Shown in pieces: positions 11,751-50,662 of a stretch of 50,662 nucleotides of DNA. The notes beneath the pieces were generated by a model. The model was given only the letters and a program-made list of their open reading frames with translations, did not search any database and was not told the origin of the DNA. Position 1 is the stretch's first letter, and each line of letters begins with the position of its first letter. The DNA comes from Oscillospiraceae bacterium. GTDB lineage: Bacteria; Bacillota; Clostridia; Oscillospirales; CAG-272. The stretch spans positions 1 to 50,662 of the forward strand of contig WREN01000001.1 of the NCBI GenBank assembly GCA_009779295.1. Direction: 5' to 3'. Made by a program: the position numbers and the translations under genes.

Positions 11751-12158
11751 ATGGCATTCGTAAACGTACCTAAAGACCTCAATAAGATCAAGAACAAGGC
11801 GTTGTTCAACCTAACCGTCAGGCAGCTTGTGTGTTTCGGCGCGGCGGCGGCAATCGGGATACCGGTATATATCCTCACCCGCGTCGCAATCGGCGGCACG
11901 GGCGCTGCTTTATTGATGATCGGGTTGATGCTGCCCTGCTTCTTCTTCGCCATGTTTGAGAAGGACGGCCAACCCGCCGAAAAAGTCCTGCGGAACTATA
12001 TCCGCACCCGTATATACTTTCCGGGCAAGCGCCCGTACAAAACGGAAAACCTATACGAAATACTGGAAAAGGAGGGAAAGAGCCTTGCAGAACAAGAAAC
12101 AGCAGCGACGCCGGACGCCGCAGGCAGTATCGGCAAAAGGAATCAGTCATATAAATAA
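11751..12158 (+). CDS. PrgI-family (VirB3-like) T4SS membrane protein
   Basis: MAFVNVPKDLNKIKNKALFNLTVRQLVCFGAAAAIG plus two TM segments, immediately upstream of VirB4. Confidence 0.8.
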   Translation: MAFVNVPKDLNKIKNKALFNLTVRQLVCFGAAAAIGIPVYILTRVAIGGTGAALLMIGLMLPCFFFAMFEKDGQPAEKVLRNYIRTRIYFPGKRPYKTENLYEILEKEGKSLAEQETAATPDAAGSIGKRNQSYK

Positions 12159-16964: not shown

Positions 16965-17458
16965 TTGGCAAAGGGCTGAAAAAGATAGCGATGCTGGTAC
17001 TGCAAGATCAGGTATGGGGACGTGTCACGGCAAACCGCGCGGCGAAACGCACGACATGGTTTTACCAAGATGAATTTCACCTTATGCTGAAAGAGGAACA
17101 GACGGCGGCGTATTCGGTGGAAATCTGGAAGCGTTTCCGCAAATGGGGCGGAATCCCCACAGCTCTTACGCAAAACGTGAAGGACTTGTTGGCGTCAAGG
17201 GAGATCGAAAACATCTTTGAGAACAGCGACTTCATATATATGCTGAACCAAGCGGCGGGCGACCGGCAGATTTTGGCGAAGCAGTTGGGCATTTCCACGC
17301 ACCAGCTATCGTATGTAACGCACAGTAACGCGGGAGAAGGATTGCTTTTCTATGGTAACACGATCATCCCGTTCTCTGATAAATTCCCGAAGGACACAGG
17401 TGAAATCTATGGGCTGCTTACGTCGAAGCCCTCGGAAATGCAGGAGGTGAGCGGTTAG
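16965..17458 (+). CDS. VirB4-family T4SS ATPase, exon 2 (contains Walker B)
   Basis: The in-frame continuation is GKGLKKIAMLVLQDQVWGRVTANRAAKRTTWFYQDEFHLML (Walker B DEFH), ending in TAG at 17456-17458. Confidence 0.8.
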
Positions 17459-33800: not shown

Positions 33801-35085
33801 CCACGACGCGGACACCGAAACGCGAAAAAAAGAACTTTTTGCCAAAGTACGTCAGGGTAGTGTACGTATACTGTTCGGCTCTACATTCAAAATGGGGAGC
33901 GGGACAAACGTGCAGGACAGGCTCATCGCCATACACGACGCCGACTGCCCCTGGCGGCCTGCCGATCTGGAACAGCGCGCCGGCCGTATCGTCAGGCAGG
34001 GCAATAAGAATGAAGAGGTGCAGATTTACAGGTATGCGACAAACGGCACTTTTGATTCGTACCTCTGGCAGACGGTGGAAAAAAAGCAGAAATTCATTGC
34101 GCAGATAATGACTTCTAAATCTCCCGTGAGAAGCTGCGAGGATGTGGACGAAACCGCCCTCAGTTATGCTGAAATAAAAGCGCTCTGCGCGGGCAACCCT
34201 CTTATTGCCGAAAAGATGAACCTCGACGTGGAAGTGGCGAAACTGCGTATGCTGAAATCCGAACATCAGAGCCAGCATTACCGTTTGGAGGACAACCTGA
34301 TGAAATATTACCCGCAGCAGATAACAGCGGTCAGGGAACGTATATCGGGTATAGAAAAAGATATTATTATGTACAACGAACAGAACGAAAAGTTCACGGA
34401 TGCGCGGCCTTCGCTGGACGGAACGGCATCGACCGCTGCGGCGAAATTCGCCGGTATGACAGTCAACGGCGTGGAATATATGGAAAAGGAGCCCGCTGCC
34501 AAAGCCCTGCTCGAAGCCTGCAAGGGCGTTACCGAAAAGAAAGATTTACCTGTCGGTAAATATATGGGATTCGATATGAGCCTGCAATTCGACGGGTTTC
34601 ACAAGACGTTCAGCGTCCTGCTGCGCGGGAATATGAGTTATACGACGGAACTCGGAACGGACGCTTTCGGCAATATCACCCGTATCAACAATACGTTGGC
34701 GGATTTACCTAAAAAACTCTCCGGAGCGAAATCACAGCTTGATGCGTTGTACCAGCAGCAGGAAGCGGCGAAGCAGGAGCTTGAAAAACCTTTTGCGCTG
34801 GCTGACGAACTGGCTGAAAAAGAAGCGCGGCTCGCGCTCTTGAACTCCGACCTGAACATAGACGGCGACGGCGGATTCGACGTGTTGAACGATGACAGCT
34901 GGGATGACGGAGCGGAGGAATACGAATTGCCTGACCCTGACGATGAAGAACCTGATGACGAATACGAACGGCAGACAGCCTCCGCGAAAAGCGCGAAGCC
35001 TTCTTTATTGGAAGGGCTGCGTTCGTTCAACCCTGAACGGCAATCTCCGGTATCAGGTAAAAAATCCCCGGAACTCGACATCTGA
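24853..35085 (+). CDS. polyvalent conjugative-element protein (3410 aa): ArdC-N-like module, repeated polyvalent-associated domains, MutS-domain-I-like module, N6-adenine DNA methyltransferase, SNF2/DEAD-like helicase
   Basis: One frame is open for 10.2 kb. MTase motif I EPSCGIGNFFG (~30.33 kb) and motif IV GNVPFG (~30.52 kb). Helicase motifs GAGKTF (~32.51 kb), FIDEAHGFKN (~32.99 kb) and QRAGRIVRQGN (~33.98 kb). Confidence 0.9.
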   Translation: MATKLQFYSVVAERAAKEVIAGSENWQSFLTVAARLYKYPFPDQLLIYAQRPDAIACAPIETWNESFNRWVRRGSKGIALIDDSGDRPHLRYVFDVSDTEPSQYRSRPVQLWEMRQEHREPVLEYLSGIYDDLGDTLADSFRSIARQLAREYYIDNASEIRYRAEDSFLEDFDDFNFGVAFEGALTNSVAYTLMSRCGFDTSDYFDDDDFRYIYEFNTPDMVYALGTAAGELSQQVLRDIELVIKKYERQQAAERSVTNERTQDERQSPDILPERGLSSSRPDTGRTAGIGGTVRQVREDTQSVSEGKPDDDLQYDAAEGNVVSASAGNGGTGDREVETGNEDIDVTGQPARQSGRSDGLDGGDERPEGTGGGTGTERIGLRLENQTYSQVGNSAISETLSTSSVTLDEVDSILRDGGNEKNSVLRIAAYFAKDMAQVENADFLRREYLLGQWGRNFESGGKGYQFGSRQTSVWFNEDGIRIGRGKSAKLATDYALITWEQTAERVKQLYDAGMYVSHDVLDEALYNESMERADDVKEIYSNISRGLNDIQYELKKAMTKEQQETVKDDWKIRRYLIRGLTELGNTAEKALFGEAKVSTDEIMRLYNETFRLSEEIPQEWEFGGSHTETVEIIAELLRDKGTISGNEIRQGIGYNELSEYNIILTRLREDLSAFEAEPDAPIHFYRNPHRVLSDLEKAGLPVYGFPAAEYTPTGYTRFITDDEVDRYLTGGSHYNESKLRILSNFLHDHTPKEQQDFLKNEYGHGGGSWVDGGWYGADPGKGITLKRSGCDDVNLNWNQAARRIENLIRGGRYISRDELGRIFNYERLMLARSINNFYYNMPDEYQRPFAKELDFYNPKEDEWAALNGLLYDPEKIDALLGEMRRIYDNTPEEDRYYENRKTGYERLTAFRDGRYTLFPGLETLPDPDATATRPQTQIPFAPFVPPSAVQNEQLTFFDFEQPPLLTSVEEQQAILEKAAETSAGDNTTVVSLLVNQDEIDAQLLNISDENKTRIMAQFAINPRSREAVQLVREIYGGIKETLALSWTALHIQIAELAEAGRFSIIESKPTPYEDYLAIKSADPDNIVFYQIGDFFEVYNGDAETAARVLDILLTSRSAAGQTERIPMIGIPFNRLPDYTNKLYEAGYGITISSLNNDGIREITSLPPKTREQAAYIPEPEITVSVPQYTVGDRFEYNGKPHEIDRVGDFIRLRNIGTPSEYPIFDYMSVSRQDFERRLSDGEIVITTSEDVSIELAELDFDTAAQTVLERVMQDADFAETLENAQSRGALRNPLNTALDKIMNDHGQDETHILRAYHNDDDFNDRLFDFVYRRSWETKTARDAAVPEPITVTEQTGIETPVRDIPISPDVPPPVFFVDWDAAQYDVANLDNANSDLVDVLDNGLIGQSDKETVLSMLANGSTNDEITALIADVYSRQIDTMTLTSGETADYSVMPDGIVIDILDRFNTKLFFTWADIAPVVRALAVGWQAGQTTELEIPVTAEDKPQTSYIKGQRIVLDLSEKLRDSFSFVHDAPFIAGEFVIDDIDGDDITVSASYIDSNGENARLTVNLTRSEAERYTVKPVADKLYDEISPSDETTTAYYLLRYPNGIGAGAVLSYADLALIKEQADAYVICAEACHLSGDDMARYNIEFRKMPRDWYLLPEVVREQIHEIKPEYENQWNDLYTNLELTGEFEPLSEKLRLEASQNFRITDDHLGEGGAKTKFRYNLDAIHVLKDIEFEKRAATPDEQQILSRYVGWGGLPQAFDPDNKQWENEYLELNAALTPEEWESARASTVNAHYTTPTVIRAVYETVERLGFRTGNILEPSCGIGNFFGLLPESMSNSKLYGVELDSVTARIAKQLYPKANIKEMGFEKTDTPDAFFDLAVGNVPFGDYGIADKRYDKHHFSIHNYFFAKTLDQVRPGGVIAFLTSKFTLDEKNPNVRKYIAQRAELLGAVRLPNNAFLKNAGTEVTSDIIFLQKRARPIDAEPDWVHLGLTHGGISVNKYYSDNPEMILGTMAPDERMNSKFGTDSFTACLPIEGADLAEQLKTALLNIQGQYTIEELDDIEGIDNHAIPADPRVRNFSYALVIPADKSNEEAEGLAYITKIGDDTVIGAGRVYYRENSMMYPVELPAATLERIKGMIALRDCVHELIDLQLDEWTGEAAIRAKQNELNILYDRFNAEYGLINSQVNNRAFNADSAYYLLCSLEILDEDGQLERKADMFTKRTIKQRTVIEHVNTASEALAVSLSEKAKVDIEYMAGLTGFTNDKLIGDLENVIYFDFGNPNKSLPPFDPDKMKMYEKFPLVTAEEYLSGNIREKLFKAERFNETFGDEVHGVDTTINVYALKTAMPKDLDPSEIAVRLGSTWIAPEYVQQFMYELLRTNWRMRESHQVKHHEYTGEWQVTGKGRSLYNDILANVTYGTNRMNAYQIIDDTLNLRDVRVYDHVKDADGKEKRVLNKKETTLAQQKQEQIKQAFKDWIWQEPRRRQTLVKLYNERFNSVRPREYDGSHITFSGISPEITLRKHQLNAIAHGLYGGNLLLAHVVGAGKTFEMVAIAMEGKRLGLCHKSLMAVPNHLTEQWAGEFLRLYPTANILVATKKDFEMRNRKKFCAKIATGDYDAVIIGHSQLEKIPMSSERQERLIREQIWEIEQGIEELKRTQGERFSIKQLEKTKKSLLARLEKLLNAKKRDDVVTYEQLGVDKLFIDEAHGFKNLFMYTKMRNVAGLSTSEAQKSSDLFMKCRYMDELTGNKGVVFATGTPISNSMTEMYTMQRYLQFDTLAEKGLTHFDSWASIFGETQTSIELAPEGTGYRARTRFALFHNLPELMYMFKEVADIQTADMLNLPVPEAKYENVIVQPSERQKEMVQELSKRAALVHSGRVDAKIDNMLKITTDGRKIGLDQRLINPLLSDFEGSKVNACTDNVYRIWDETKDGKLTQLVFCDFSTPNKNGRFNVYDDVKTKLLERGVPEHEIAFIHDADTETRKKELFAKVRQGSVRILFGSTFKMGSGTNVQDRLIAIHDADCPWRPADLEQRAGRIVRQGNKNEEVQIYRYATNGTFDSYLWQTVEKKQKFIAQIMTSKSPVRSCEDVDETALSYAEIKALCAGNPLIAEKMNLDVEVAKLRMLKSEHQSQHYRLEDNLMKYYPQQITAVRERISGIEKDIIMYNEQNEKFTDARPSLDGTASTAAAKFAGMTVNGVEYMEKEPAAKALLEACKGVTEKKDLPVGKYMGFDMSLQFDGFHKTFSVLLRGNMSYTTELGTDAFGNITRINNTLADLPKKLSGAKSQLDALYQQQEAAKQELEKPFALADELAEKEARLALLNSDLNIDGDGGFDVLNDDSWDDGAEEYELPDPDDEEPDDEYERQTASAKSAKPSLLEGLRSFNPERQSPVSGKKSPELDI
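25628..26002 (+). CDS. tnpV: TnpV-family protein gene nested out of frame inside the polyvalent ORF
   Basis: 124-aa ORF in a different frame from 24853..35085. AAAGGAG at 25613-25619 lies 8 nt upstream of the ATG. The product carries TnpV-like landmarks GDYLLPDL, AYLKENR, LFPHL, DDPMGWTAAMN and AEELVLNELVYA. Confidence 0.65.
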   Translation: MNEPKMNDNRLTYSLNGDYLLPDLILDEPPELAEPLGRYARIRKAYLKENRTMTYNTMLLKETLFPHLRETEELATARLKQVMKILMSRDSLPDKADDPMGWTAAMNALKAQAEELVLNELVYA

Positions 35086-36998: not shown

Positions 36999-37337
36999 GC
37001 TGATGGAATCAGTCGCAGCAGACCCGCCGAAGGCGGGGCTTAAACGGGTGCGCAGCTCCCGTGGGGTATTAGGGGCAGAATCCCCTAACAAGCGGTAAGT
37101 AGGTGGAACCCCACTTCCATTGCTTGCAAAACGGTATCGGAACGTTACGATAATAAATTTCGCGTAAACTGACAACGGCAACTACAATAGAACCAAAATA
37201 AACCCTGTGACACGAGAAAATCAATCGATTTTCTGTGCGTACAACAAGCGTTCAATGTACTTCCAATTTTATTATTGTACGCCTTATCTGCGTCCAATGT
37301 AAGTATATAATAAAAAAACTAAAGGAGAAATATTCAT

Positions 37338-38252
37338 ATGATAATAGCTATAGACCACGGAAATAAGCAAATCAAACTGCCGGGAGGACATGTCTTTACT
37401 TCCGGCCTGCGCGAAAGCGACGCCAAACCGCCGTTCGGCGACGACGTTCTGAAATACAAAGACAAATATTATTCGCTCTCGGACAAGCGTATACCGTATA
37501 TGCGCGAAAAATTTATCGACGACCGGTTCTACATCCTCACCCTGTTCGCCATAGCTTTTGAAATCGAGGACACAGGGCGTTACGATCCGGGCGTAATGCG
37601 CGTCCATGTCTTGGCCGGACTACCTCCCGCTCATTTCGGAACGCAGTACGAACGATTTGAAAACTATTTCAAGCGCGGCGTTGATGAATTTGAGTTTCAC
37701 GGCAAGAACTTCAATATTAATATATATGATGCGACGGCTTACCCGCAGGCGCTCGCCGCCGCTGTTCCGGTAATTGGGGAAATTAGCTCCCTGCCCAAAG
37801 CGGTTGTTTTGGATATAGGGGGATTCACGGCTGATTACCTCATATTAAAACATGGCCGTGCTGACTTGTCGGATTGCGATTCCCTTGAACATGGGGTTAT
37901 CATCATGTATAACCAGATCACCGCGAAAGTAAACTCCGACTTGGATTTGCTGCTGGACGAATCCGATATTGACACGATCCTGCAAGAAACGCCGAACGAT
38001 TTTCCTGATAACATTAAGCGTATCGTACATGATACGGCACAAGTATTCGTGTCAGACTTGTTCGGGAAATTACGTGAACGGGCGATTGACCTGCGCTCCG
38101 GTAAAACCGTATTTGTCGGCGGCGGCTCTATTCTGCTCAGGGAGCAGATAGAAGCGTCCGGAAAGGTCGCTTCGCCAATTTTCGTGGATAAAATATCAGC
38201 CAACGCGAAAGGGTACGAGTTGTTGTACAGAGCGTTCAAATCGAGGGGGTGA
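37338..38252 (+). CDS. ParM/StbA-like actin-fold segregation ATPase
   Basis: Actin-fold motifs IIAIDHGNKQIK (phosphate 1), VVLDIGGFTADY (phosphate 2) and VFVGGGSILL (adenosine). Confidence 0.75.
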   Translation: MIIAIDHGNKQIKLPGGHVFTSGLRESDAKPPFGDDVLKYKDKYYSLSDKRIPYMREKFIDDRFYILTLFAIAFEIEDTGRYDPGVMRVHVLAGLPPAHFGTQYERFENYFKRGVDEFEFHGKNFNINIYDATAYPQALAAAVPVIGEISSLPKAVVLDIGGFTADYLILKHGRADLSDCDSLEHGVIIMYNQITAKVNSDLDLLLDESDIDTILQETPNDFPDNIKRIVHDTAQVFVSDLFGKLRERAIDLRSGKTVFVGGGSILLREQIEASGKVASPIFVDKISANAKGYELLYRAFKSRG

Positions 38253-38650
38253 TACGCTTGGACGATAAAAAATCCGCCACACGGTTTACGATACAATTCA
38301 ACCGTACCGACCACGCTCACCTCCGCGCGGCAGACATTCTTAACCAATACGAACGGTTCGGCAAAGCGCGGCATATCGTCAACGCCATACTTCATTATGA
38401 AGATTGTGAACACCGTGATATGCAGCCATCGGCGAAAATTGACGAGAAGTATATCGAAACGGTTGTCAACCGGATATTGCGCGAAAACTGTACAAGCGGC
38501 GATGATGTCCGGCTTGATTCCGATGATGTAAAACGGGAACATAACCAAAAGCCCCTTGACGAGATTGATTTTGACGGCGCGATGGAAATGCTGGGCGAAG
38601 ACGGCTTAAACGCCGTGGCGGACGCGCTGGATATGTTTAGAAAAAAATGA
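38249..38650 (+). CDS. hypothetical protein, possible ParR-like adaptor
   Basis: Overlaps the ParM-like stop (GTGA); an alternative start is TTG 38258. 133 aa. The assignment rests on position only. Confidence 0.45.
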   Translation: MIRLDDKKSATRFTIQFNRTDHAHLRAADILNQYERFGKARHIVNAILHYEDCEHRDMQPSAKIDEKYIETVVNRILRENCTSGDDVRLDSDDVKREHNQKPLDEIDFDGAMEMLGEDGLNAVADALDMFRKK

Positions 38651-38827
38651 TAAAAAAACATGGCGGGTTTGTTTTAATCCAACCCGCTGTGCCTTTGAAT
38701 ACTTTTTTTCAATATTTTATATGCTTATACATAGCGCGAAAATACCGAACAGGGCAACCTTTTGGGAGATATATAAATAAAGAAGAACGGAATCACCCGT
38801 TCTTGATAGTGCTTCCATTAAATTAAC

Positions 38828-38856
38828 TTTCGTAGAGTATTCAATTCTATGAAAAA
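38828..38856. repeat. left 29-bp inverted repeat containing a core-type recombinase site
   Basis: TTTCGTAGAGTATTCAATTCTATGAAAAA matches the reverse complement of 40246-40274 at 28 of 29 positions. Internal architecture is CGTAGAG-TATTCAA-TTCTATG (7-7-7). Confidence 0.85.
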
Positions 38857-39063
38857 TATGGTATTATTATATATCACTATAATTATAAAATATAATTTTA
38901 AATTTGTCAATACTATGTAGAAAATTAATGTTTTTTTAAGAGAAAATGTACGATCAGTTAGCATCTGACGGCGATATACGGGTTATGACGCGCGAAAAAG
39001 GTTTGCGCAACCCATTTATCGCCGTCAAATTTTAAGTCAAAATTTTTGAAAGGAATGATATAT

Positions 39064-40182
39064 ATGGCAAAACACGGAGAAAACATTTATAAGCGCAAAG
39101 ACGGGCGATGGGAAGCGAGGGTAATCAAGGGATATACTGAAAATGGCAAGGCTCTATACGCCTACATATACGGGCGGACTTATAGGGAAGCAAAAGAAAA
39201 AATCTTTAATTCGTTAACCTACACTATCGAAAATGTTGTTTCAGCAAAAACAACAACCGCGCCAAATTTCGAGAGTGTATTGGTTTTGTGGCTTGACAGA
39301 AAAAGGATCGGAATAAAAGAATCCTCATATGTTAAGTATTTCAACCTCATGAATAATCACATCAAGCCTTATTTGGGGAAATATCCAATATCAAGCATAG
39401 ACAGCGCGGTATTAAATTCATTTATCGCAGAAAAACTTAAAATAAACGGTTTATCGGAAAAAACGATGAAAGACATTATGACAGTTATAAAATCTGTTCT
39501 GCGGTTCGCAAAGGAAGAAGGATTAATTACAGAGATTGATTTTAAAATTAATCTCCCACGCGAAAAACAAAAGGATATGAGGGTTCTGACAAAAGATGAA
39601 CAAACCCTGCTCGAAAAATATTTGTGTTCCGAAATCGATGAGAACAAACTCGGAGTTCTTGTTTGTTTGTATACCGGGTTACGGGTCGGAGAAATTTGCG
39701 CGTTGAAATGGAGCGATATTTCATTGGATGAAAACACGCTCACAGTGAGCCGCACAATGCAGAGAATACAAACGTTAAACACTACCTACGATACAAAAAC
39801 CAAAGTGTTTGTTACCGATCCGAAAAGCGACTGTTCCGCGCGCGTTATCCCTCTGCCTGATTTCTTAATTAAAAAATTAAAAATGTTTCGTCCCGCGTAT
39901 GAAAACGCATATCTTCTCACCGGTAAACCAGAACGGTATATCGAACCGAGAACCTATCAAAACCGGTTCAAATCATACATTACGGGTAGCGGAATCAAAC
40001 ATGCAAATTTCCATTGCTGCCGACACACGTTTGCCACGAGATGTGTTGAGGTTGGCTTTGAAATAAAAAGTTTAAGTGAAATCCTCGGTCATGCTAACGT
40101 CAATATTACTTTAAACAGATATGTGCATCCGTCTTTTGATTTAAAACGCAGCAATATGAACAAGCTCGCTTGTTTTTATTGA
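39064..40182 (+). CDS. tyrosine site-specific recombinase/integrase with N-terminal Arm (AP2-like) DNA-binding domain
   Basis: N-terminus MAKHGENIYKRKDGRWEARV. Catalytic region LYTGLRVGEICAL (R), CCRHTFATRC (H-x-x-R), LGHANVNITLNRYVH (H...Y). The track ORF starts at TTG 39046; I prefer ATG 39064. Confidence 0.9.
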   Translation: MAKHGENIYKRKDGRWEARVIKGYTENGKALYAYIYGRTYREAKEKIFNSLTYTIENVVSAKTTTAPNFESVLVLWLDRKRIGIKESSYVKYFNLMNNHIKPYLGKYPISSIDSAVLNSFIAEKLKINGLSEKTMKDIMTVIKSVLRFAKEEGLITEIDFKINLPREKQKDMRVLTKDEQTLLEKYLCSEIDENKLGVLVCLYTGLRVGEICALKWSDISLDENTLTVSRTMQRIQTLNTTYDTKTKVFVTDPKSDCSARVIPLPDFLIKKLKMFRPAYENAYLLTGKPERYIEPRTYQNRFKSYITGSGIKHANFHCCRHTFATRCVEVGFEIKSLSEILGHANVNITLNRYVHPSFDLKRSNMNKLACFY

Positions 40183-40214: not shown

Positions 40215-40250
40215 AAAGCATTGATAAATCACGGTTTATCAATGCTTTTT
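40215..40250 (+). terminator. rho-independent terminator downstream of the recombinase gene
   Basis: AAGCATTGATAAA pairs perfectly with TTTATCAATGCTT across loop TCACGG, followed by TTTTT. The T-run is also the first 5 nt of the right inverted repeat. Confidence 0.85.
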
Positions 40251-40274
40251 CATAGAGTTGAATACTCTACGAAA
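40246..40274. repeat. right 29-bp inverted repeat containing a core-type recombinase site
   Basis: TTTTTCATAGAGTTGAATACTCTACGAAA with architecture CATAGAG-TTGAATA-CTCTACG. An extra half-site CTCTACG lies at 40288-40294. Confidence 0.85.
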
Positions 40275-40330
40275 ATATTTTTTTAAGCTCTACGAAAAAA
40301 ACACTTAATTAAATAATGTGAAATCGAAAT

Positions 40331-40406
40331 CGCTTAACCACGTTTCGCGTCAGCAACGAAGCTGAAGAAAGAGAACCTCAACTCCAAAATAAAAGAGGCA
40401 AAAAAA
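40331..40406 (+). promoter_or_regulatory. conserved leader/promoter module, copy A (upstream of the giant surface-protein gene)
   Basis: The 34-nt block at 40371-40404 matches 49112-49145 at 33 of 34 positions. The upstream 28-nt block matches at 21 of 28. Confidence 0.6.
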
Positions 40407-40422
40407 TTTGGGAGAAATGAAA

Positions 40423-43400
40423 ATGAAAAAAAGGATATTACATAAAATAATAACTTTTACTCTTGCGTTCGTGATGATTGCTGGGTTTACTCCAGCATTA
40501 CCAGTACATGCAGCAACTTCTCTTTGGGTAGGTAATGGAGGCTTACCATCTGGTTCAATTGTAGAAGAAGGAATATCTTTTTGGTGGGGTTTGGATATTA
40601 TAAGAGATGATTATGGTAGCATACCGAACCTTGATATAAAGGTTGATGTCATTAATGGCAAATTACCAACTGGCATATACCACGACAGGAATGGCGTATT
40701 TGTAGGTACTCCTGTAGAACCAGGTACATTTACTTTTTCTCTCAGAGTAACTCAAATAAGCACTGGGTTTACGGGTACACTTCTTAACCATACAATCATA
40801 GTCGTACCCCATCGTCCTCTCATTCCAACTGCGGCAATAACCATTGTCGAACCAATAACAGGCAATGCGCCAAATGTATCAGCTAACGGAACCGGTTTAT
40901 TTACTGTTGGCACAGTATCATGGACTCCGAATCATAACCCGTTCCGTGCAGGAACATCTTATACGGCACAAGTTACGTTGACAGCTAACGGAGGTTATAA
41001 GTTTTCAAACTCAACAAATGCTACGATAAATGGGCAAATTGCAAGAAACGTATCATTGGGAGGTCTACTGGGTAACGGAGAAATAACGATATCATATACG
41101 TTCCCTTCCACCCCCCCTATATCCATTGGTGAACAGCAAGGCAGGTTATTCCCCGGTATTCCCGGAACTGTTGTTTTCCCTATAAATGGTATACCAGACG
41201 GCAGTTACAATGATGTAACGGTTAACAATCTTCCGCCCGGCGTAACAGTTGAAAGACCAATTGTTATTTCGAATAACACTGGTATTTTGAAATTAACAGG
41301 AAGCACGGCTACAATCACTGGAATAACTTCAAACTTGAGGTTAACAATTAACGGAAACATTTCAGAGCCGTTCATTTTATATGTGACTGATATTAACGAA
41401 CCAATAGAAATATTTACGGCTGAAGAATTCAACACTGTTGTTCGAGATTACGGTCGCTATCCGTATAGTCATTTCAAAATCATGAATGATATTGACCTCT
41501 CTGAAATTAACAACGGTATTTGGGAACCGATTGGTACGACATCTCAACCATTCAGAGGCACAATTGAAGGTCGTTTTAATATGATTTCGGGCGTTAATGT
41601 TGCGCCGGGTAGTTCCGCTTACGGTCTATTTGGGTATAGCGAAGGAATTATTAAAGATTTAGGAGTGGAATACACATCTCGTTTTGGCGGAGTTGCCGGA
41701 AATAACAGCGGAAGTATTGTAAACAGTATTACCAAATTTGAACTCAGAAACCCAACATCATGGACAGGCAACAACCGAATTGCAGACAAGGTCGTGCTTA
41801 TAGACCTTTCAAGCCCAAATCAATCTAAACTGATCAACAGAACCCTCACAATAGCTGATACTGTTGAAACCGTTGTATTCAGAGGACGAGATACAATATA
41901 TGAAGGGCTTAGTATTGTTATTGAAGGCAATACCACTGTGGTTTTAGATGATTTTAGATTTCAAGCTCGCCCCGGCGAACATGCGATTAATTTTATCGGA
42001 GGCGTTGGCTCTAATCCTGCTATTATTTCGACAGGAAGCCGAAACAACAATTTAATACAAGGCTGGCACACGCATAATGCGGTGCAGAGTAACGGCAATT
42101 TATTTATTGGCGGCAACGCAAACTTAACCGTCGATTATAAAGAACCGAGCGCAGATATTCAAAGGAATGGGCTCGATGCGATTCATTTGAATGGAAATTT
42201 AACCGTTGCATTAGACGCTGCCTTGAAAGCGCAGGGTGGCAATGGCGGCGATGGTGGAACGGTACAAAAAGCCGGATCAGCAGGTGATAACGGTGTTAAA
42301 GGTGGTGACGGCGGCGCAGGGATTCACTCTTTTGGCTTGAATATTCTTAATTATTCAGAAGTAATTGTTATAGGAGGCAACGGCGGAAATGGAGGTCATG
42401 GTGGCAATGGCAGTCATGGTACAAATGGCAATAAAGGGTTAGATGCGATAGATTTTAATCGTGATATAATTCCCACTTTGCTTGGTTCACCTGAAAACGA
42501 CGGAGAGGATGGAGGTACCGGAAATCAAGGTGGTAACGGCGGTGATGGGGGCGACGGCGGAAAAGGCGGAGACGCCATACAACTTAGTACGAATCTTTAT
42601 TATTATTCACAACAAAGCTGTATTCGTATGATTGCTGGTCAAGGTGGAAACGGCGGTCGAGGCGGAAGTGGCGGCAACGGCGGCAACGGTGGCAACGGTG
42701 GCAATGGTGCTAATGCTGGATTGCTCGGTGGTAGGGGTGGCAATGCCGGAAATGGTGGTCGAGGTGGTAACGGAGGAAAAAACGGTGATGGAGGTTGGAA
42801 CGGGTCTTTATTATATGTTAATGGGCAAACTATTTATGGCGAATCACAAAAATATGGCGGAGGAGCTTATACGGACAGAACCTCTTTCGGTTCAGGTGGC
42901 AACCCTGGTTTCCCAGGTAGAGGTGCAGATGCAATGCTTCGTTGGTTTCCTGTTATTTCCGCAGGTATAGACGGAAGTGACGGAAACCAAGGTAATCCGG
43001 GGGTTTCTGGTTCATTGGGTGGCGAAGGTATACCGCGGCCAATGAACGAGGAGGAAATGACCGGCTTTCTTGGGAATCTTATACCATCTGATTTTTGGAA
43101 CACAATGCGTGTTGAATTCCAGCGGCGGCGTGTTGGTGCGGACAGGCTTATTATAGCAAGGATGCCATCAAGAACAACTTTCATTGCTGGTGAGATTTTT
43201 CGTCCTATAAGTAACTGGACTGATATAGAAATTGGACGCATGATAAACGGAGAATATGAACAGATATATAATCTTGGACAAGTGAACTTTTCACTTAATA
43301 ATTCTCCGTTAAACGTTTTTGACCGAGAAATTATAATAACGTCAGGTGCGTTTACTGCAAGAGTTCCGATAACAGTTAATCCTGTTTCTACAACGGAACT

Positions 43401-46191
43401 TATCCCTATTTTGCCGCCTGACCGTGGTCTTGTTTTTGAAGAAGGTAATCAGCTTGTGCCAACGCTACAACCTACTCCAGAATTGCGAACGTTGCATGGC
43501 TTAAGCTTAAGACGTATATTAATTAACGGTAATGAAAATATAATTGAAGGCGAAGATATTTTCTTAGGAATGCCAACGCCCAGACAAGATTATCTTTTTA
43601 GCACACGGGCGCGCATTGTTGATAAGCGTGAAAATGCCATAGATTACTTAAGAAATGCTGGCGGAAGACCACTTGACGAAGAAGATAAAGAAATAATAAT
43701 TGAAGATGGATACTGGTTTAATAATGATTTTATCGTTACCGCCAGTGTTTCAATTCCAATTGTTGTAAAACCAAGACCGGCAGCTGCTGCACCTATTGCG
43801 AGTGTTGATTCTGGCGCAGTTGCTATTGGTACGGAAATAATACTTACAAGCGATATGCCGAATATTGGATTATCAAACGGAAGCCGAAGCGTATTTATTC
43901 GATATACCACAAATGGCTCTGAACCAACGCGAATATTAAGCAGTACAGTATTTGATGGGTCGCAGCCTATTAATATTAACGGTAATACGAACATAAAAGC
44001 GAAAGTTTTTTATACCGAAGAAATTGAAGTCTGCGCAGAAAGAAATTGGGTTGAATATAGAACAACAGAGAGTGGTACAGTCACGTTTAGTTATACGTTA
44101 TTAGATCGTATAGAAATTGAGCATCCAAACGATATATTGGTGCAGGGGTTAGATTTTGGTACGCACCCACAAAATGTTATTATTAACCCGGATACAATTA
44201 CAATAAAAAACACAGGGGGTACACCGACTGGAAATATAAATATAGAGGTATATAACTTAGAGGGTTTACCTCATGAAAACTTTAAACTTTTAAACGAATC
44301 CATTACTGGAATACCGGTCGGAGGATTTGCTACATTCGAAATACAGCCCGGAACTTCAGCTGGATTGTCGGCAGGGCAACACGTTGCAATTGTTGTTTTG
44401 AGCGGAATTAATATGGAACCGATAATGATAGCAACATGGGTTGATATTTTAACGGAAAGCGATAACGCACAGATACCAAACATAATTAACCATCCACAAA
44501 ACGCAACTGTTACGGTCAATGCGGCGTATAATCTGATCGTTTCGGCAAATGTCACGGACGGTGGTAGTTTAAGTTATCAATGGTACAGCAATACAATTGC
44601 GTCCAATACGGGTGGCACGATTATACAGGGAGCGACGAACGAAACATTTACCGTGCCTACAGGTATAGCAGGAACATATTATTATTACGTCGTAGTAACA
44701 AACACAAACAACGATGTAGGCGGAATAAAAACAGCGACAGTGACGAGCGACTTCGCTATAATAACGATTCTTAATATACTTGACCCTTACGAACCACAAA
44801 TCAACATTACAAACGCAACAGGACGGGCAGGCGAAGAGATAACGCTGACAGTTACGATGGAAAACATACCGCAAATTGCGGGATATGGCATTTCGATGAC
44901 TTATGACCCTAATGTGTTTACATACATCTCAGCAGCGCCCGGCGATATTCTGCCGGAGAGATTCATCGATCAAATAAGGCCAAATAATCGGATGTTTTTC
45001 AGTTCGTATGACGACGACGGCAATTTTGAAACAGGTACAACATTATTTACGGTAACTCTTAAAATAGACGACAATATAGGAGAAGGCGTTATCGAGCCCG
45101 CTGCACTATATTTCTCATATTTTAATACAGTGATTGAGGGCTTCGATACTGGCGATACGATATACCCTGAGATAAATCAGCCAGTTATCACGGTCATCAA
45201 CGTTTTCTACGGCGATGTGAACGGCGACGGCAGGCTGAACATTTCCGACAGGACAAGGATGAACCAATTCTTCTCGGACAATCTACCAGAAGGTGCAGTA
45301 TTTATAGAGGCAAACGCAGACGTAAACGGCGACGGACGATTGAACATATCAGACAGAACCGTGATGAACCAGTTTTTCGCGGGTACGAGAGATTATCTCG
45401 GGCCGCAGATAACCCCAGCGTTTTTCAGTTTCATTTTACCCACACTTATACCAGTAAATGAGCCGGAGATACTTGTATCTAACGTTTCCGGTAAGGTCGG
45501 CGATACAGTTAGCTTAACCGTATCGATAAAAGATAATCCAGGACTATCAGGTTACGGCATATCGATGCGTTACGATGAGAACTTGTTAACCTTCATATCA
45601 GCGTCGGCGGAAGATATACTGTATGATAATTTCGTCGTTATTGAGAAGCCAGACGGACGAATCCACTTCAACTCGTATAACGATGACGGCGAGTTCGAAA
45701 CCATTGAAGAGCCGGAAGACGAAGAGGAATTTGTAGATGAAACAATATTATTCACGGTGACGTTCAGAATCAACGAGACAGTTTCTGGAGGCGTTAACTC
45801 TATAGGAGTAGTAGAGTTCTATTACGATAATTTCGTTATCGAAGGATTCGCGATATGCGAGGCCGATGGAATCACGCCGAAAACGATATATCCGGAGATA
45901 CCGTTAGGATTTGTTACAGTAGAGGTTGGTAATGCGGTTACGATTGTGAACGCGGTTGCGCAGTACATCAGCATAGCAGAGACATCGAAAAATTCCGGAG
46001 TATGGGCGTTGACGTTTAGAGTAACGGAAACGTGGTCGAACGGTGAGACGAAAGTAGTGCCGTACACGATCAACATCAAAGCTAACAACGCGAATGTAGA
46101 TGGCAGATACAACCTCGGAGCGTATATTTTAATTTACGATATCAAAGGTAACGGCTCTAACATCAGAGAGTTTAGGGTTATACTGAAGTAA
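40423..46191 (+). CDS. giant secreted surface protein: Ig-like domains, GLUG-type module, Gly-rich GGNGG repeat region, cohesin - dockerin - cohesin, conserved C-terminal module
   Basis: Signal peptide [29 protein letters not shown]. Dockerin [22 protein letters not shown]...[21 protein letters not shown] (45205-45390). Two cohesin-like modules (~44.81-45.20 kb and ~45.47-45.93 kb). ATG 40423 follows GGGAG by 8 nt; the track start is TTG 40408. Confidence 0.85.
42230..42810 (+). repeat. coding low-complexity region of (GGNGG/GGDGG)n tracts alternating with short hydrophobic strands
   Basis: The translation reads GGNGGDGG..., [43 protein letters not shown] and [28 protein letters not shown]... 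Confidence 0.85.
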
Positions 46192-46354: not shown

Positions 46355-48937
46355 ATGCAAATAATAAGAAAAAAAGTTTTTTGTGTGTTTTTAACTTTGG
46401 CATTGGTATTTAATATGTTTATAATATTTCCGATAAATACATTTGCGGCAGAATCGGAAAATGTACCAACTGTCTTTGTATCAAGCGCACAAGGCAAACC
46501 AGGCGATCTCATATCCTTAACCGTTTCTTTTCAAAATAATCCGGGATTATCGGGATACGGTATCACATTGAAATTCAATCCGAGCAAATTAACTTATGTT
46601 ACATCGAATCCGGGTGTAGTATTATCAGATAACTTCACCCGCACAGTAAGAACCCAATTGAACGAAATCTTTTTTGTTTCTTATGATAACGATGGAAATT
46701 ATGTTGACGGAGAAAATTTGTTTTCAGTTTCATTCATTATAGATCCAAATTTAACAGACAGGGTTATTGAAGGCGAAGATATAATGTTCTTCTATAAAAA
46801 CATTATACTTGAAGGGTTCGAAATACCTGATGGCGGGGGCGATACCATATATCCTACAATAATACAACCCAGAATCGAAGTAGAAAATGATGAATGTGAA
46901 CACGAATACGACGATGGTGTAGAAACTACAAAAGCAACTTGTATTGAAGAAGGGTTGATGACTTACACTTGCTCTTATTGCGATGATAGTTATACCGAGC
47001 CTATATCGATAGACCCAAATAACCATGTCGGAGGCACATATGAAGAAGAGATAATAGTTGCAACATGTGTCGTTGAGGGTCTTATGGGTATCTATTGTAA
47101 TAGTTGCAATGAGTTGCTTGATACTCGGATAATACCAATAAAAACTGAACATCCTGGCGATACATATGAACAAATAATCACTGCGGCGACATGTGTCGCT
47201 ACGGGAATAATGGGTATTTACTGCACTGATTGTGATTATTTTCTCACTACAAATATTATACCGATAAACCCTGAAAATCATGTTGGCGGTACATATGAAA
47301 ATATAATTACTAATCCAACTTGTATTACCAAAGGTATCATGGGTATCTATTGTTCCGGGTGCAATGAATTACTTGAAACGGAATCAATATTAGGAGGTCA
47401 TCCTGGAGGTTCTTATCAAAATGAAATTATTGCGGCGACTTGTATTTCTGAAGGAACAATGGGTATATATTGTTCTGAATGTTACGAATTAATCGAGACA
47501 GAGACAATACCGATAAATCCGGACAACCATGTAGAAAGTTCATATACACAGGAATATATTCCGGCGACATGTATTACTGAAGGAACGCTGGGTATTTATT
47601 GTGCTGGTTGTCATGCTTTGATCGAAACAGAATTTGTAGTAATAAATCCAAACAACCACATCGGCGAAACATATAGAAGCGTAATTATTCCGCCGACATA
47701 TGATGCTGAAGGTTTAAGGGGTATTTATTGCTCAGGCTGCCACGAATTGCTTGACACAGAAATAATCTCTCCAATAGATTGCAAACACGAAGATGGTACA
47801 TATGAAGAAGTCATCACGTCCGCTACATGCGTTGCTGAAGGATTAGTAGTTACTCACTGTAATAATTGCCATGATGAACTCGGAACTGTTATTATACCGA
47901 TCAACCCAAACAACCACGTAGGCGGAACATACGAAGATGAAATCACTGCCGCTACATGTGTTGCCGAAGGTTTAATGGGTATTTACTGTAATAGCTGCGA
48001 TGTTCAACTTCATACAGCATCGACTGTAATAAACCCGAATAACCATGTCGGTGGCACATATGAAGAGGTAATCACTACCGCTACATGCGTAACTACAGGA
48101 ACAATGGGTATTTATTGCAATGACTGCGATGAATTGCTTGAAACTGATACGATACCATTAAATCCGATTAATCACGCTGGCGATACATACAGAGACGTTA
48201 TTACTATTGCGACATGCGCTACCGAAGGCGTCATGGGTATTTATTGCTCTGACTGTAATGCATTGATTTATACAGAGCCTATTGCGAAAAACCCTGATAA
48301 TCATGTTGGTGGGACATATGAAGAAATGATAGTTGCTCCGACATGCATAGCCACAGGAATAATGGAAGTTTATTGTAATAGTTGCCATGAATTGCTTGAA
48401 ACTGATACAATACCAATAAACCCGATTAATCATATTGGCAATACATACAATAATGTGATCACTGTTTCGATTTGCGTTACTGAAGGCGTCATGGGAATTT
48501 ATTGCTTTGACTGTAATGCATTGATTTACACAGAACCAATTGCGATAAACCTTGATAATCATGTTGGCGAAACTTATGAAGCCGTTATTACGGAAGCGAC
48601 TTACACGAACGAAGGATTAATGGGTATCTACTGCTCTGGTTGCGGTGCGTTGCTCGAAACGGAAGTTATTCCGATAAAACAAGACGAGCAAAAAGACTGC
48701 GACTTTTTACGTGAAAGAGCAGCTGGAATACTTAAAAACGGTTTAAAAACGGATAATCTACGCCTCGTTGGTAAAGTGTTGACGTTAGTTATTGATGGCA
48801 GAGAATTCATTCTCAGTAAAAATGCTAATAATCGTAATATCGAGGGCGAAATCCCTCTTGGCGATGGTTGCTATCTAAGATTCGACATCAAGGGTAACGG
48901 TTCAAATATTAAAGTTTTTGAAATTATTAAAAAATAA
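46355..48937 (+). CDS. secreted cohesin-domain protein with 14 tandem His/Cys repeats and the shared C-terminal module
   Basis: GGAGG lies 8 nt upstream. Signal peptide, cohesin-like [43 protein letters not shown], then the repeats. Confidence 0.85.
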   Translation: MQIIRKKVFCVFLTLALVFNMFIIFPINTFAAESENVPTVFVSSAQGKPGDLISLTVSFQNNPGLSGYGITLKFNPSKLTYVTSNPGVVLSDNFTRTVRTQLNEIFFVSYDNDGNYVDGENLFSVSFIIDPNLTDRVIEGEDIMFFYKNIILEGFEIPDGGGDTIYPTIIQPRIEVENDECEHEYDDGVETTKATCIEEGLMTYTCSYCDDSYTEPISIDPNNHVGGTYEEEIIVATCVVEGLMGIYCNSCNELLDTRIIPIKTEHPGDTYEQIITAATCVATGIMGIYCTDCDYFLTTNIIPINPENHVGGTYENIITNPTCITKGIMGIYCSGCNELLETESILGGHPGGSYQNEIIAATCISEGTMGIYCSECYELIETETIPINPDNHVESSYTQEYIPATCITEGTLGIYCAGCHALIETEFVVINPNNHIGETYRSVIIPPTYDAEGLRGIYCSGCHELLDTEIISPIDCKHEDGTYEEVITSATCVAEGLVVTHCNNCHDELGTVIIPINPNNHVGGTYEDEITAATCVAEGLMGIYCNSCDVQLHTASTVINPNNHVGGTYEEVITTATCVTTGTMGIYCNDCDELLETDTIPLNPINHAGDTYRDVITIATCATEGVMGIYCSDCNALIYTEPIAKNPDNHVGGTYEEMIVAPTCIATGIMEVYCNSCHELLETDTIPINPINHIGNTYNNVITVSICVTEGVMGIYCFDCNALIYTEPIAINLDNHVGETYEAVITEATYTNEGLMGIYCSGCGALLETEVIPIKQDEQKDCDFLRERAAGILKNGLKTDNLRLVGKVLTLVIDGREFILSKNANNRNIEGEIPLGDGCYLRFDIKGNGSNIKVFEIIKK
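46895..48685 (+). repeat. 14 tandem coding repeats of about 129 bp (about 43 aa each)
   Basis: Unit consensus: H-x-G-G-T-Y-E-x-x-I-x-x-A-T-C-x-x-x-G-x-M-G-I-Y-C-x-x-C-x-x-L-x-x-T-x-x-I-P-I-N-P-x-N. Confidence 0.9.
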
Positions 48938-48981
48938 TTTTAATAATCGAAAATTGTAATAAAATTTTGTAATTATTAAAA

Positions 48982-49025
48982 ACACGGGCGGTTCATTTAA
49001 AATAAACAACTGCCCGTGTTTTTTA
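48982..49025 (+). terminator. rho-independent terminator
   Basis: ACACGGGCGG (48982-48991) pairs with CTGCCCGTGT (49010-49019), followed by TTTTT. Confidence 0.8.
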
Positions 49026-49077
49026 GTAATATTTAAATATGGTACCATACACAAGGTTGCTCGCTCCGAAAAAGATT

Positions 49078-49147
49078 CTCTTAGCCATGTTACGCGATAA
49101 CAACGCGGCAGGAGAACCTCAACTCCATAATAAAAGAGGCAAAATAA
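49078..49147 (+). promoter_or_regulatory. conserved leader/promoter module, copy B (upstream of the MACPF gene)
   Basis: See copy A. GAGAACCTCAACTCCATAATAAAAGAGGCAAAA lies at 49112-49145. Confidence 0.6.
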
Positions 49148-49170
49148 TAATAATTCTGGAGGAACAAAAA

Positions 49171-50662
49171 ATGAAAAAAACATTTCGCAAACTTATGGCA
49201 ACGTTTTTAGTTATGGTTATGATGATGACCATGATACCTACGGTCACATTGCAAGTTCAAGCTCAATCTTCAATACCCGACGGACTTGGCTTAGGACACC
49301 TATTAAAGGGATTCAACTCCTTAGCCAGTAATTCGGCTGACCGCATACTCCTCGTAGAAAACCTTAAAAATCTACCATCAGAACGAATTTTCAAAGAAAA
49401 TTCGTTCGATGTCTTCCAAAATTTCCTGTTTTTGAATACAGTTACCGTTGGTGATGATAAAACAATCATTGCGAGATCAATGACTGAATATGCATTAGAC
49501 ACAATAAAAGGCTGGGGTTTTCAAGCAAACCTTGAACTTGCTGTTGAATTAGGCAAAGCACCTGTAAAAACAATTGTCAAAACAAAAATAGAAGAACGAT
49601 TTAGTAAGATAACCAACGAATTATTAAGAACGTCTACAAATGAACTATATTATGAAAGCCTCACGTGGCTACGTCGAGGGATTTATGAAATAGATTTTAG
49701 TTACATACCGGAGGACTTAATTCGGACACAATTAAATCCTGTTTTCCTACGAGACTTGTTAGATAAAAATGTCACCCCAGAGCAGCTATTCCGTACATAC
49801 GGAACACACTTTCTTACGCAATACTCTATGGGTGGTTGGATAGAAGCCGGTATATATTCTATCGATGAAACAATCAATGAAAAAATATCGAAGGTAAATG
49901 AATGGTCTGGAACAGTAGCAGATGTAAACAACTCAATTGAACAAAATGGAACACATAGTGCGCGCCATAACTCAACGACAAGGATTCATGGCGGGCATGG
50001 CGGGGTTATCAATTCTACCAATCCAAATGATGCTCAAAATGCTAAAAACACTTGGTTACAAAGTTTTAATAGGACTGATTGGTGGGGTGTATGCGAAATA
50101 CTTACTATTCCTGATCCCCGTGTGCCACTTGAATTCACGGGTATATGGGAATTGCTCCCCGAAGAAGAATGGATAAGATACGACGAATTAGTACAGGCGT
50201 ATATTGCGTTAGCTACTGATATGGATAGTAATTTCTTTACGAATTTCATATACAGACAATTACAACCGATAGGCAATTTGCCGCCGCCAAGTATCAATGA
50301 AAATACTATAAGAATTACTAACCAAACCGAGCTTGACGCCGTCCGAAACAATCTGTCAGGTACATACATCCTTATGAACGACATCACTTTATCGGGGAAC
50401 TGGGAACCAATCGGTTCGGCGACTGCTCCGTTCACTGGTACGTTTATAGGTAACGGATATACGGTAAGTAACGTCAGCATTGTTTCCGGTAACACAACTC
50501 CCGGACTTTTCGGAATCAACAGAGGCACAATCGAATCCCTTGCGGTCGTTTATAATAACGTCAACGGTCATCGCCCCAGTAGCGTTGCGAGTAGAACCGA
50601 GGGGGCAGGGGTTGTCAATGCCAGTTATCCGAATTGGAACATAAACCCTACGATTAGCAGGG
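49171..50662 (+). CDS. secreted MACPF (membrane-attack complex/perforin) domain protein with a downstream GLUG-type module; the 3' end runs off the window
   Basis: Absent from the ORF track, which shows no ORFs lacking a stop. I read 497 consecutive sense codons from ATG 49171 to the window end. GGAGG lies 8 nt upstream. Signal peptide MKKTFRKLMATFLVMVMMMTMIPTVTLQVQA. YGTHFLTQYSMGG at 49798-49836 fits the MACPF signature (Y/W)-G-(T/S)-H-(F/Y)-x6-G-G exactly. Confidence 0.8.
   Translation, partial: MKKTFRKLMATFLVMVMMMTMIPTVTLQVQAQSSIPDGLGLGHLLKGFNSLASNSADRILLVENLKNLPSERIFKENSFDVFQNFLFLNTVTVGDDKTIIARSMTEYALDTIKGWGFQANLELAVELGKAPVKTIVKTKIEERFSKITNELLRTSTNELYYESLTWLRRGIYEIDFSYIPEDLIRTQLNPVFLRDLLDKNVTPEQLFRTYGTHFLTQYSMGGWIEAGIYSIDETINEKISKVNEWSGTVADVNNSIEQNGTHSARHNSTTRIHGGHGGVINSTNPNDAQNAKNTWLQSFNRTDWWGVCEILTIPDPRVPLEFTGIWELLPEEEWIRYDELVQAYIALATDMDSNFFTNFIYRQLQPIGNLPPPSINENTIRITNQTELDAVRNNLSGTYILMNDITLSGNWEPIGSATAPFTGTFIGNGYTVSNVSIVSGNTTPGLFGINRGTIESLAVVYNNVNGHRPSSVASRTEGAGVVNASYPNWNINPTISR

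Follow-up and report, generated by a model that had tools for sequence, protein, structure and literature searches.

What does the MACPF-like gene that runs off the end of an Oscillospiraceae contig encode, and what might its product do? To address this question, we analyzed the whole of contig WREN01000001.1 (GenBank assembly GCA_009779295.1, positions 1 to 50,662 of the forward strand), hereafter called the window, which is the longest contig with the MACPF protein (50662 bp). A first-pass annotation, made from the letters alone, had read the last gene as a secreted, perforin-like protein carrying a GLUG-type module and had pointed to the secreted antibacterial MACPF toxins of gut Bacteroidales. 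By profile, motif, and predicted fold, the open reading frame (ORF) carries a true MACPF (perforin-fold) domain, which forms the N-terminal head of a far larger multidomain protein.

The window ORF carries a MACPF domain

The Pfam profile PF01823 matches amino acids (aa) 186 to 298 of the translated ORF with 32.5 bits (E = 1.3e-7), above its curated gathering score of 21.5. The signature [YW]G[TS]H[FY]x6GG occurs once in the protein, as YGTHFLTQYSMGG, at the position where it was originally noticed; given the E values of the Pfam match and of the structural comparison described below (3e-9), this motif is far above chance. The best sequence match in the PDB is likewise a MACPF protein, the toxin GNIP1Aa (6fbm, E = 0.015).

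From a 34-sequence alignment of the family, AlphaFold2 gave a model (mean predicted local distance difference test [pLDDT] score of 73.9, predicted template modeling score [pTM] of 0.61) with the canonical order b1-TMH1-b2-helices-b3-TMH2-b4, that is, a predicted central sheet with two helical clusters, the putative transmembrane hairpin regions TMH1 and TMH2. The four strands span aa 86-101, 157-174, 213-232, and 265-273, with three short helices between the second and the third. Searched against the PDB with Foldseek, the model gave 43 matches at E ≤ 0.001, and the best 50 matches listed are all MACPF proteins, among them GNIP1Aa (3e-9), Bth-MACPF (3kk7), Plu-MACPF (2qp2), TgPLP1, Mpf2Ba1, C9, C8, perforin, pleurotolysin B, and MPEG-1. 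Both the profile match and the fold with its two helical clusters are what the first-pass annotation had led us to expect. A cholesterol-dependent cytolysin or a related protein was also considered and set aside, as no cytolysin appears among the top structural matches listed, every one of which is a MACPF protein.

The two helical clusters differ in character. In TMH1 (55 aa), hydrophobic positions alternate strongly on either side of a G-K-A-P turn, in a pattern that resembles an amphipathic hairpin (WGFQANLELAVELG-KAP-VKTIVKTKIEERF), while TMH2 (32 aa) is weakly amphipathic; both are modeled with low confidence, as expected for regions that refold. The family-specific motif GIWELLP is followed by a long predicted helix (aa 334-361) and a low-confidence, proline-rich linker (aa ~362-378) between the MACPF head and the stalk. 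Residues invariant in the 34 family members include G211, T212, G221, G222, G274, G275, W295, W326, and P330, and the signature residues Y210 and H213 differ in a few members. With the G-T and G-G of the signature invariant, and its Y and H nearly so, in relatives at 22 to 44% identity, the domain appears to be under purifying selection.

The gene is open and continues past the contig end

The MACPF gene is real and open. Retranslation of the plus strand from ATG 49171, which lies 8 nucleotides (nt) downstream of a GGAGG, agrees with the original reading of 497 sense codons, with no stop and one base left over at 50662. The only ORF listed for this stretch is a spurious 164-aa frame on the minus strand (50034-50528), and the gene had escaped the ORF track, as was noted at the time, because the list omits frames that run off the source. 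The N terminus, MKKTFRK-LMATFLVMVMMMTMIPTV-TLQVQA/QS, reads by eye as the Sec signal peptide that had been proposed, with a basic n-region, an 18-residue hydrophobic core, and an AxA-like site; the AlphaFold2 model places a helix at aa 2-19, in the same region.

An exact-protein lookup of the 860-aa product of the upstream gene retrieved a sister contig (L022; ENA ERZ27257304 k141_5330167, 50964 bp) and, in addition, a Logan contig from SRR10512951. Over 1563 aligned bases, L022 and the window are separated by one substitution, which causes M104I, and L022 holds the MACPF frame open to 636 codons, 139 sense codons beyond the window; these extra residues are 50% identical to the closest homolog, P0002. 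The frame is thus not interrupted just past the window, as the annotation had reasoned it might be in a pseudogene. The downstream sequence extends the frame but does not reach the end of the gene, and no further overlapping fragment turned up when the C-terminal 197 aa from L022 were used in a word-index protein search.

L022 ends at the exact point where a 1927-aa paralog, encoded upstream in the window, goes into a GGNGGN repeat. Because of this coincidence, we attribute the truncation to an assembly break and not to a pseudogene; by analogy with the paralog, the MACPF gene most likely has an equivalent repeat, at which the two assemblies break. In the 1927-aa protein, this Gly/Asn-rich, GGNGGNGG-type repeat (nt 42226-42800, with a 9-nt periodicity) comes right after the stalk, which probably explains why the MACPF gene has never been assembled whole.

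The MACPF head belongs to a family of large, stalked proteins

To define the family, we used aa 1-372, the MACPF part, as the query of an exhaustive phmmer search of 1.84 billion representative proteins. This search returned 89 relatives at E ≤ 1e-3, 39 at E ≤ 1e-10, and 13 at E ≤ 1e-30, most of the 89 being 1000 to 2700 aa long and matching through their first ~370 residues; the closest relative is already auto-annotated as a "MACPF domain-containing protein." Pfam MACPF is found in 33 of the 34 members scanned (E ≤ 0.001), Glug in 14, Big_2 in 13, Dockerin_1 in 6, Cohesin in 5, Cu_amine_oxidN1 in 3, and SLH in 1, with fusions of MACPF to Dockerin or Cohesin in P0046, P0047, P0052, L008, L009, L010, and L011. 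As judged from these sequences, members of the family have MACPF as an N-terminal head and, behind it, a long stalk of the adhesin type that bears modules for surface anchoring or docking; the picture of a small toxin like the BSAPs of Bacteroidales does not fit them. Four members are short (P0003, P0050, P0053, and P0078; 377 to 554 aa).

One further relative, P0004 (540 aa), is cut by an insertion sequence (IS), whose DDE_Tnp_1 domain overlaps its 3′ end (L002, 11590-12371; also in L003 and L004). It adjoins a 2871-aa LRR_5 and dockerin protein, and the same IS junction is present in three assemblies.

The head is followed by a module (aa ~379-466) that, on the basis of sequence similarity, is best seen as the cap, or initial turns, found ahead of GLUG repeats in other proteins. 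It is 36 to 61% identical over aa ~380-470 to many proteins bearing PF07581 (Pfam Glug), is modeled with a pLDDT of about 80 to 96 over aa 380-460, and is 43% identical to aa 356-422 of the 1927-aa neighbor (E = 3e-13). The claim of a GLUG-type module therefore survives in part: the cap module is homologous to GLUG-containing proteins, but the Glug motif itself was not detected, either in the 497-aa ORF at E ≤ 1 or in the 636-aa extension at E ≤ 5. A faint resemblance to Peptidase_M26_N is present in the extension. Beta-helix proteins of the GLUG type, such as the N-terminal region of IgA1-type M26 metalloproteases and large Firmicute surface proteins, have a similar cap module but bear PF07581. 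The sequence after the cap is a different type of repeat, common to P0002 and the 1927-aa neighbor. Neither the stalk nor the 1927-aa protein's head has a match in PDB sequence searches.

That this module is shared with a neighboring giant protein was correctly seen, and the giant is the 1927-aa protein: the region after the MACPF domain (aa ~398-636) is 40% identical to its aa ~356-580 over 240 aa (E = 8e-39). We also tried the 3410-aa protein of the window as the GLUG-bearing giant and rejected it; it has no similarity and is a MutS_I/SNF2 helicase instead. The fusion of MACPF to GLUG, thought to be unusual, is common within the family, given the 14 members that pass Pfam Glug. Several matches to the cap module are flagellins (Flagellin_N/C) with an inserted Peptidase_M26_N or GLUG region (P0008, P0021, P0028, and P0030), an odd architecture with no bearing on the MACPF protein.

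Proposed function and alternatives

We consider it fairly probable that the ORF makes up the first quarter to half of the gene for a secreted surface protein of very large size, likely over 1000 aa, whose MACPF head acts as a tethered, contact-range pore former. The order of parts would be a Sec signal peptide, a distal MACPF head, the proline-rich linker, and a beta-helix stalk paralogous to that of the 1927-aa protein; by analogy with this paralog and with full-length family members, the missing C terminus is likely to have Gly/Asn-rich repeats, Ig-like domains, and modules for wall anchoring, cohesin/dockerin or other. After Sec export, the protein would stay on the surface of the producer or join the two adjacent gene products in a cohesin-dockerin assembly. 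On meeting a target membrane, the MACPF heads would oligomerize, and the helical clusters, chiefly the amphipathic TMH1, would refold into beta-hairpins that perforate the membrane. We infer pore formation from the sequence and model of the head and tethering by cohesin-dockerin contacts from the architecture of related proteins.

Several observations weigh against this reading. The literature that we searched contains no lytic MACPF protein of a monoderm bacterium. The C terminus lies beyond both contigs, and any anchor of this protein, whether dockerin, cohesin, or another module, is hypothetical; a dockerin is detectable in only six of the 34 family members. The structural model is of only moderate confidence, as its pTM indicates. 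In the subfamily to which the window protein belongs, TMH2 is uniformly 32 aa long and weak, compared with 41 to 50 aa in the rest of the family; this is small for a MACPF hairpin and recalls the bacterial MACPF proteins without demonstrated lytic activity. Between the cohesin genes and the MACPF gene stands a strong terminator, so that coexpression is only putative, and no immunity or target gene is evident nearby.

The main alternative is that the MACPF domain is an adhesive or recognition head, part of a large surface adhesin or of a cellulosome-like assembly, and is never inserted into a membrane; we regard this as possible, if on the unlikely side. The short and weakly amphipathic TMH2 across the whole subfamily would suit such a protein, as would the remaining architecture, which is typical of adhesins (GLUG beta-helix, Big_2/Big_3, cohesin/dockerin, and SLH). 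Two of the closest structural matches bear only the deposited names "putative cell invasion protein" (3kk7) and "MACPF/perforin-like protein" (2qp2), and we know of no lytic activity shown for either. TMH1, however, has its full length with a clear amphipathic hairpin signature, and hairpins of about 30 aa suffice to span membranes in the cholesterol-dependent cytolysins. Moreover, the G-T and G-G of the signature, GG 274-275, and the W and P of GIWELLP remain invariant at 22 to 44% identity, which argues for selection on the machinery of the conformational switch and not on a surface patch alone.

Two other explanations seem less likely. The head might be cut at the linker and act at a distance as a soluble toxin, like the BSAPs, which are MACPF toxins thought to kill close strains by means of pores (PMC11901371). 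Although the low confidence and proline content of the linker and the existence of short family members are in keeping with such a release, we think it improbable: the score with the NCBIfam model BSAP5a_fam is 19 bits, where the cutoff is 500, at least one short member (P0004) is an artifact of its IS and several others come from short contigs, there is neither a protease gene nor a target-replacement gene nearby, and the conserved long stalk with its docking modules argues for a tethered state. Finally, the gene could be a decaying remnant or an assembly chimera without a functional product. It is incomplete in every assembly found, lies in a region rich in mobile elements, and has in P0004 a relative that was truncated by an IS. 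This seems very improbable, since two independent assemblies agree and one is open to 636 codons, the gene has a good ribosome-binding site and its own leader, all family-invariant residues are intact, and the break is explained by the low-complexity repeat of the paralog at the point where the contig stops.

Comparison with known systems

GNIP1Aa (6fbm, from Chromobacterium), Bth-MACPF (BT_3439; 3kk7), Plu-MACPF (2qp2), and Mpf2Ba1 (8b6u/8b6v) share the predicted fold of the window protein (Foldseek E = 3e-9 to 5e-7) and its signature motif, at only 13 to 16% identity. These solved proteins are about 500 aa long, have a single small binding domain on the C-terminal side of the MACPF domain, and are made by Gram-negative bacteria, whereas the relatives of the window protein reach 1000 to 2700 aa, add GLUG beta-helix, Ig-like, and cohesin/dockerin modules, and are found in Clostridia. 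The window protein is unlike every structurally characterized bacterial MACPF protein in size, architecture, and host. To our knowledge, bacterial MACPF proteins have been studied almost exclusively as soluble proteins of about 500 aa from Gram-negative bacteria (BSAPs, Plu-MACPF, and the insecticidal GNIP and Mpf toxins).

Like the window protein, BSAP1-4/5 are bacterial MACPF proteins of gut symbionts, presumed to form pores against competitors (PMC11901371). Membership in this group was considered and rejected on the BSAP5a_fam score given above. The BSAPs are small and diffusible, and their genes lie beside those for the targeted receptor or lipopolysaccharide glycan; in contrast, the window protein has at least 636 aa and is still open, its neighbors are cohesin/dockerin proteins and a recombinase, and its producer is a monoderm. 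The cellulosome-type assemblies of Clostridia likewise combine Cohesin with Dockerin_1, as do the neighbors of the gene, and the family fuses MACPF to these same domains. Unlike cellulosomes, the locus has no glycoside hydrolases and no scaffoldin of the carbohydrate-binding module type, and the cargo would be a pore-forming domain.

The literature that we searched holds no paper joining MACPF with dockerin or GLUG, and queries for perforin with dockerin and for MACPF with termite, Clostridia, or Firmicutes returned only unrelated papers; this head-and-stalk family is not described there. It represents a separate MACPF lineage in anaerobic gut Clostridia, and apparently also in termite-gut Bathyarchaeia, in which the perforin fold tips a giant modular surface protein, often together with cohesin-dockerin docking modules. 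Should the head form pores, this would be a new deployment of a perforin-type weapon, tethered and possibly phase variable, and a noncellulolytic role for cohesin-dockerin assemblies, and the protein would be a candidate for mediating antagonism within the community of the termite hindgut. The short TMH2 found throughout the subfamily also offers a natural test of how much hairpin a MACPF protein needs.

Neighboring genes, leaders, and tails

The features of the locus are collected in Table 1. Downstream of a drop in G+C content (GC), the order of genes is tyrosine recombinase, 1927-aa protein, 860-aa protein, terminator, and MACPF gene.

TABLE 1 Features of the MACPF gene and its surroundings, in window coordinates
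Feature	Position	Strand	Evidence or remark
Left arm of 29-nt inverted repeat, core TTTCGTAGAGTAT	38828..38856	.	
Sigma-70 consensus promoter TTGACA-17-TATAAT, 12/12	38882..38910	-	Inside segment, next to left arm
Tyrosine recombinase (Phage_integrase family)	39046..40182	+	Inside inverted-repeat segment
Right arm of 29-nt inverted repeat	40246..40274	.	
1927-aa secreted protein: unknown head, paralogous stalk, Gly/Asn-rich repeat, 2 cohesins, dockerin, DIKGNGSNI tail	40408..46191	+	
860-aa secreted protein: N-terminal cohesin, at least 9 Cys-rich repeats of ~43 aa, C-terminal DIKGNGSNI tail	46355..48937	+	
Hairpin and U-run, intrinsic terminator of 860-aa gene	48978..49024	+	Folding: -22.7 kcal/mol, z = -6.1
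MACPF gene 5′ leader	49070..49148	+	Related to leader of 1927-aa gene, about 40330-40407
Ribosome-binding site GGAGG	49158..49162	+	8 nt 5′ of ATG 49171
MACPF multidomain gene, 5′ part	49171..50662	+	ATG start, open to contig end; extended by sister contig L022
Sec-type signal peptide, aa 1-32, likely cleavage VQA/QS	49171..49266	+	Read by inspection
MACPF domain, aa ~35-365	49273..50265	+	Pfam PF01823, model strands, Foldseek
TMH1 helical cluster, aa 102-156, 55 aa	49474..49638	+	AlphaFold2 model, sequence
MACPF signature YGTHFLTQYSMGG, aa 210-222	49798..49836	+	Motif occurs once
TMH2 helical cluster, aa 233-264, 32 aa	49867..49962	+	AlphaFold2 model, sequence
Family-specific motif GIWELLP, aa 324-330	50140..50160	+	Alignment; W326 and P330 invariant, others nearly so
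Beta-helix cap module of the kind preceding GLUG repeats, aa ~379-466	50305..50568	+	Homology, model

The Pfam domains of the two neighbors score 74.8 and 31.1 bits for Cohesin and 32.3 bits for Dockerin_1. The repeats of the 860-aa protein follow the pattern NPxNHVGGTYExxIxxATCxxxGxMGIYCxxCxxLLxT in tandem, with 45 cysteines in total and a DNA period of 129 nt (window positions 46990-48680). Both neighbors end in a conserved C-terminal tail of ~40 aa (NANNxN..G....L, ending DIKGNGSNI(K/R)xFxxIxK; 46066-46191 and 48812-48937), which may be a sorting or anchoring signal and which also ends the MACPF protein of L009 and several neighboring proteins in L008 and L009. The cassette of cohesins, dockerin, and tail in the 1927-aa protein is 37 to 41% identical to the C-terminal part of the MACPF proteins of L008 and L009; heads and docking cassettes are thus recombined within one set of genes.

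The terminator hairpin of the 860-aa gene was skipped by a simple terminator scan, because its loop exceeds 8 nt, and is clear by folding. It ends the upstream gene, so that the MACPF gene would form its own transcription unit. The 5′ leaders of the 1927-aa and MACPF genes share a 37-nt core, GAGAACCTCAACTCCA(A/T)AATAAAAGAGGCAAAA, that is 95% identical. This leader corresponds to no Rfam family; a search of Rfam over 38.2-50.7 kb gave only chance, microRNA-like matches on terminator hairpins.

A candidate invertible promoter upstream

The recombinase gene lies within a segment bounded by inverted-repeat arms that are 97% complementary. The consensus promoter inside it, read from 38910 to 38882, is directed out of the segment, over the left arm and into a terminator on the minus strand (38804 to 38783), and a hairpin stands at the end of the recombinase gene, just 5′ of the right arm. 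The same design is found in a Defluviitaleaceae contig (L011), with perfect 26-nt repeats that have the core TTTCGTA(G/A)AGTAT, as in the window, an outward promoter-like site, terminators in the same places, and a recombinase 45% identical to that of the window. There, the segment lies directly upstream of a gene for a 2078-aa MACPF-dockerin-cohesin protein.

Because this layout recurs in a distant relative, the sequence of the segment suggests that it is likely an invertible promoter, now in the OFF orientation, that serves as a phase variation switch. The window and L022 carry it in the same orientation, and inversion was not observed in these two assemblies. The switch may not control the MACPF gene of the window, since that gene lies beyond a terminator. 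Inverted repeats are likewise used by the fimS/FimB-FimE and Hin/hix switches; here, the recombinase gene and an outward promoter are both within the segment, upstream of genes for surface proteins. The recombinase is of the tyrosine type and encoded inside, whereas Hin is a serine recombinase and the fim recombinases are encoded outside their segment.

Hosts and putatively archaeal contigs

A scan for the locus that covered one genome per species found 16 loci. The strong matches are metagenome-assembled genomes (MAGs) from the guts of higher termites, assigned to Oscillospiraceae, Defluviitaleaceae, and Symbiobacteriaceae; their isolate codes (Lab288, Th196, Emb289, and Co191) are termite species identifiers (PMC7024585). 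Weaker matches come from Clostridia of ruminant and other guts. Two matches are on contigs binned as Bathyarchaeia/Nitrososphaerota, L008 (JAISPR010000086.1, 9983-15524) and L009 (WQYG01000002.1, 5244-18684), and these stretches hold MACPF-cohesin-dockerin genes together with cohesin partners. The MAG of L009, Emb289P3_bin80, is a member of the Bathyarchaeia with 39% GC and an estimated contamination of 6.3% (PMC7886697). The flanking genes on the archaeal contigs best match archaeal-type families (Dph6_archaeal, AglJ-like, and VhuA/VhuG-like, all below curated cutoffs), for which reason the contigs look truly archaeal. On the sequences at hand, this points to a gene set common to two domains of life, or to misbinning.

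Speculatively, the conserved set that comprises the MACPF giant, its paralog with a different head, and the Cys-rich cohesin protein, which tend to share the DIKGNGSNI tail, might be a previously unrecognized, contact-range attack assembly with a MACPF warhead, self-assembling at the cell surface by cohesin-dockerin pairing, switched by a tyrosine recombinase inverton and moved between Clostridia and Bathyarchaeia in the guts of higher termites. We think it doubtful that all of this holds; if it does, the set would include, as far as we found, both the first tethered MACPF weapon of monoderms and the first MACPF proteins reported in Archaea.

The conjugative element and the rest of the contig

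From position 1 to ~38.6 kb, the window is occupied by a Firmicute-type conjugative element of about 50% GC. Its genes include those for ParA/ParB, a VirD4-type coupling protein, TrbL_2, a VirB4-like ATPase, an M23 peptidase, a CD1107-like protein, ArdC/YodL, the 3410-aa MutS_I/SNF2 protein, a relaxase, and a ParM-like protein. At about 38 kb (~37000-39000), GC falls from about 50% to 37 to 44%, and this junction is repeated in the independent contig L022. The low-GC part with the recombinase, cohesin, and MACPF genes may be host chromosome or a second island, and no tRNA gene marks an integration site in the window. We considered the MACPF gene as cargo of the conjugative element and set this aside, in view of the drop in GC and of relatives in nonconjugative contexts; the adjacency may be coincidental.

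Within the element, the gene for a VirB4/TraG-like ATPase is apparently split by a group II intron (11956-17458), with an intron ORF (RVT_1 and GIIM) at 14863-16782 and P-loop_TraG fragments at 11956-14121 and 16991-17458. The 3410-aa protein (24853-35085) combines a MutS_I domain with an SNF2/Helicase_C helicase.

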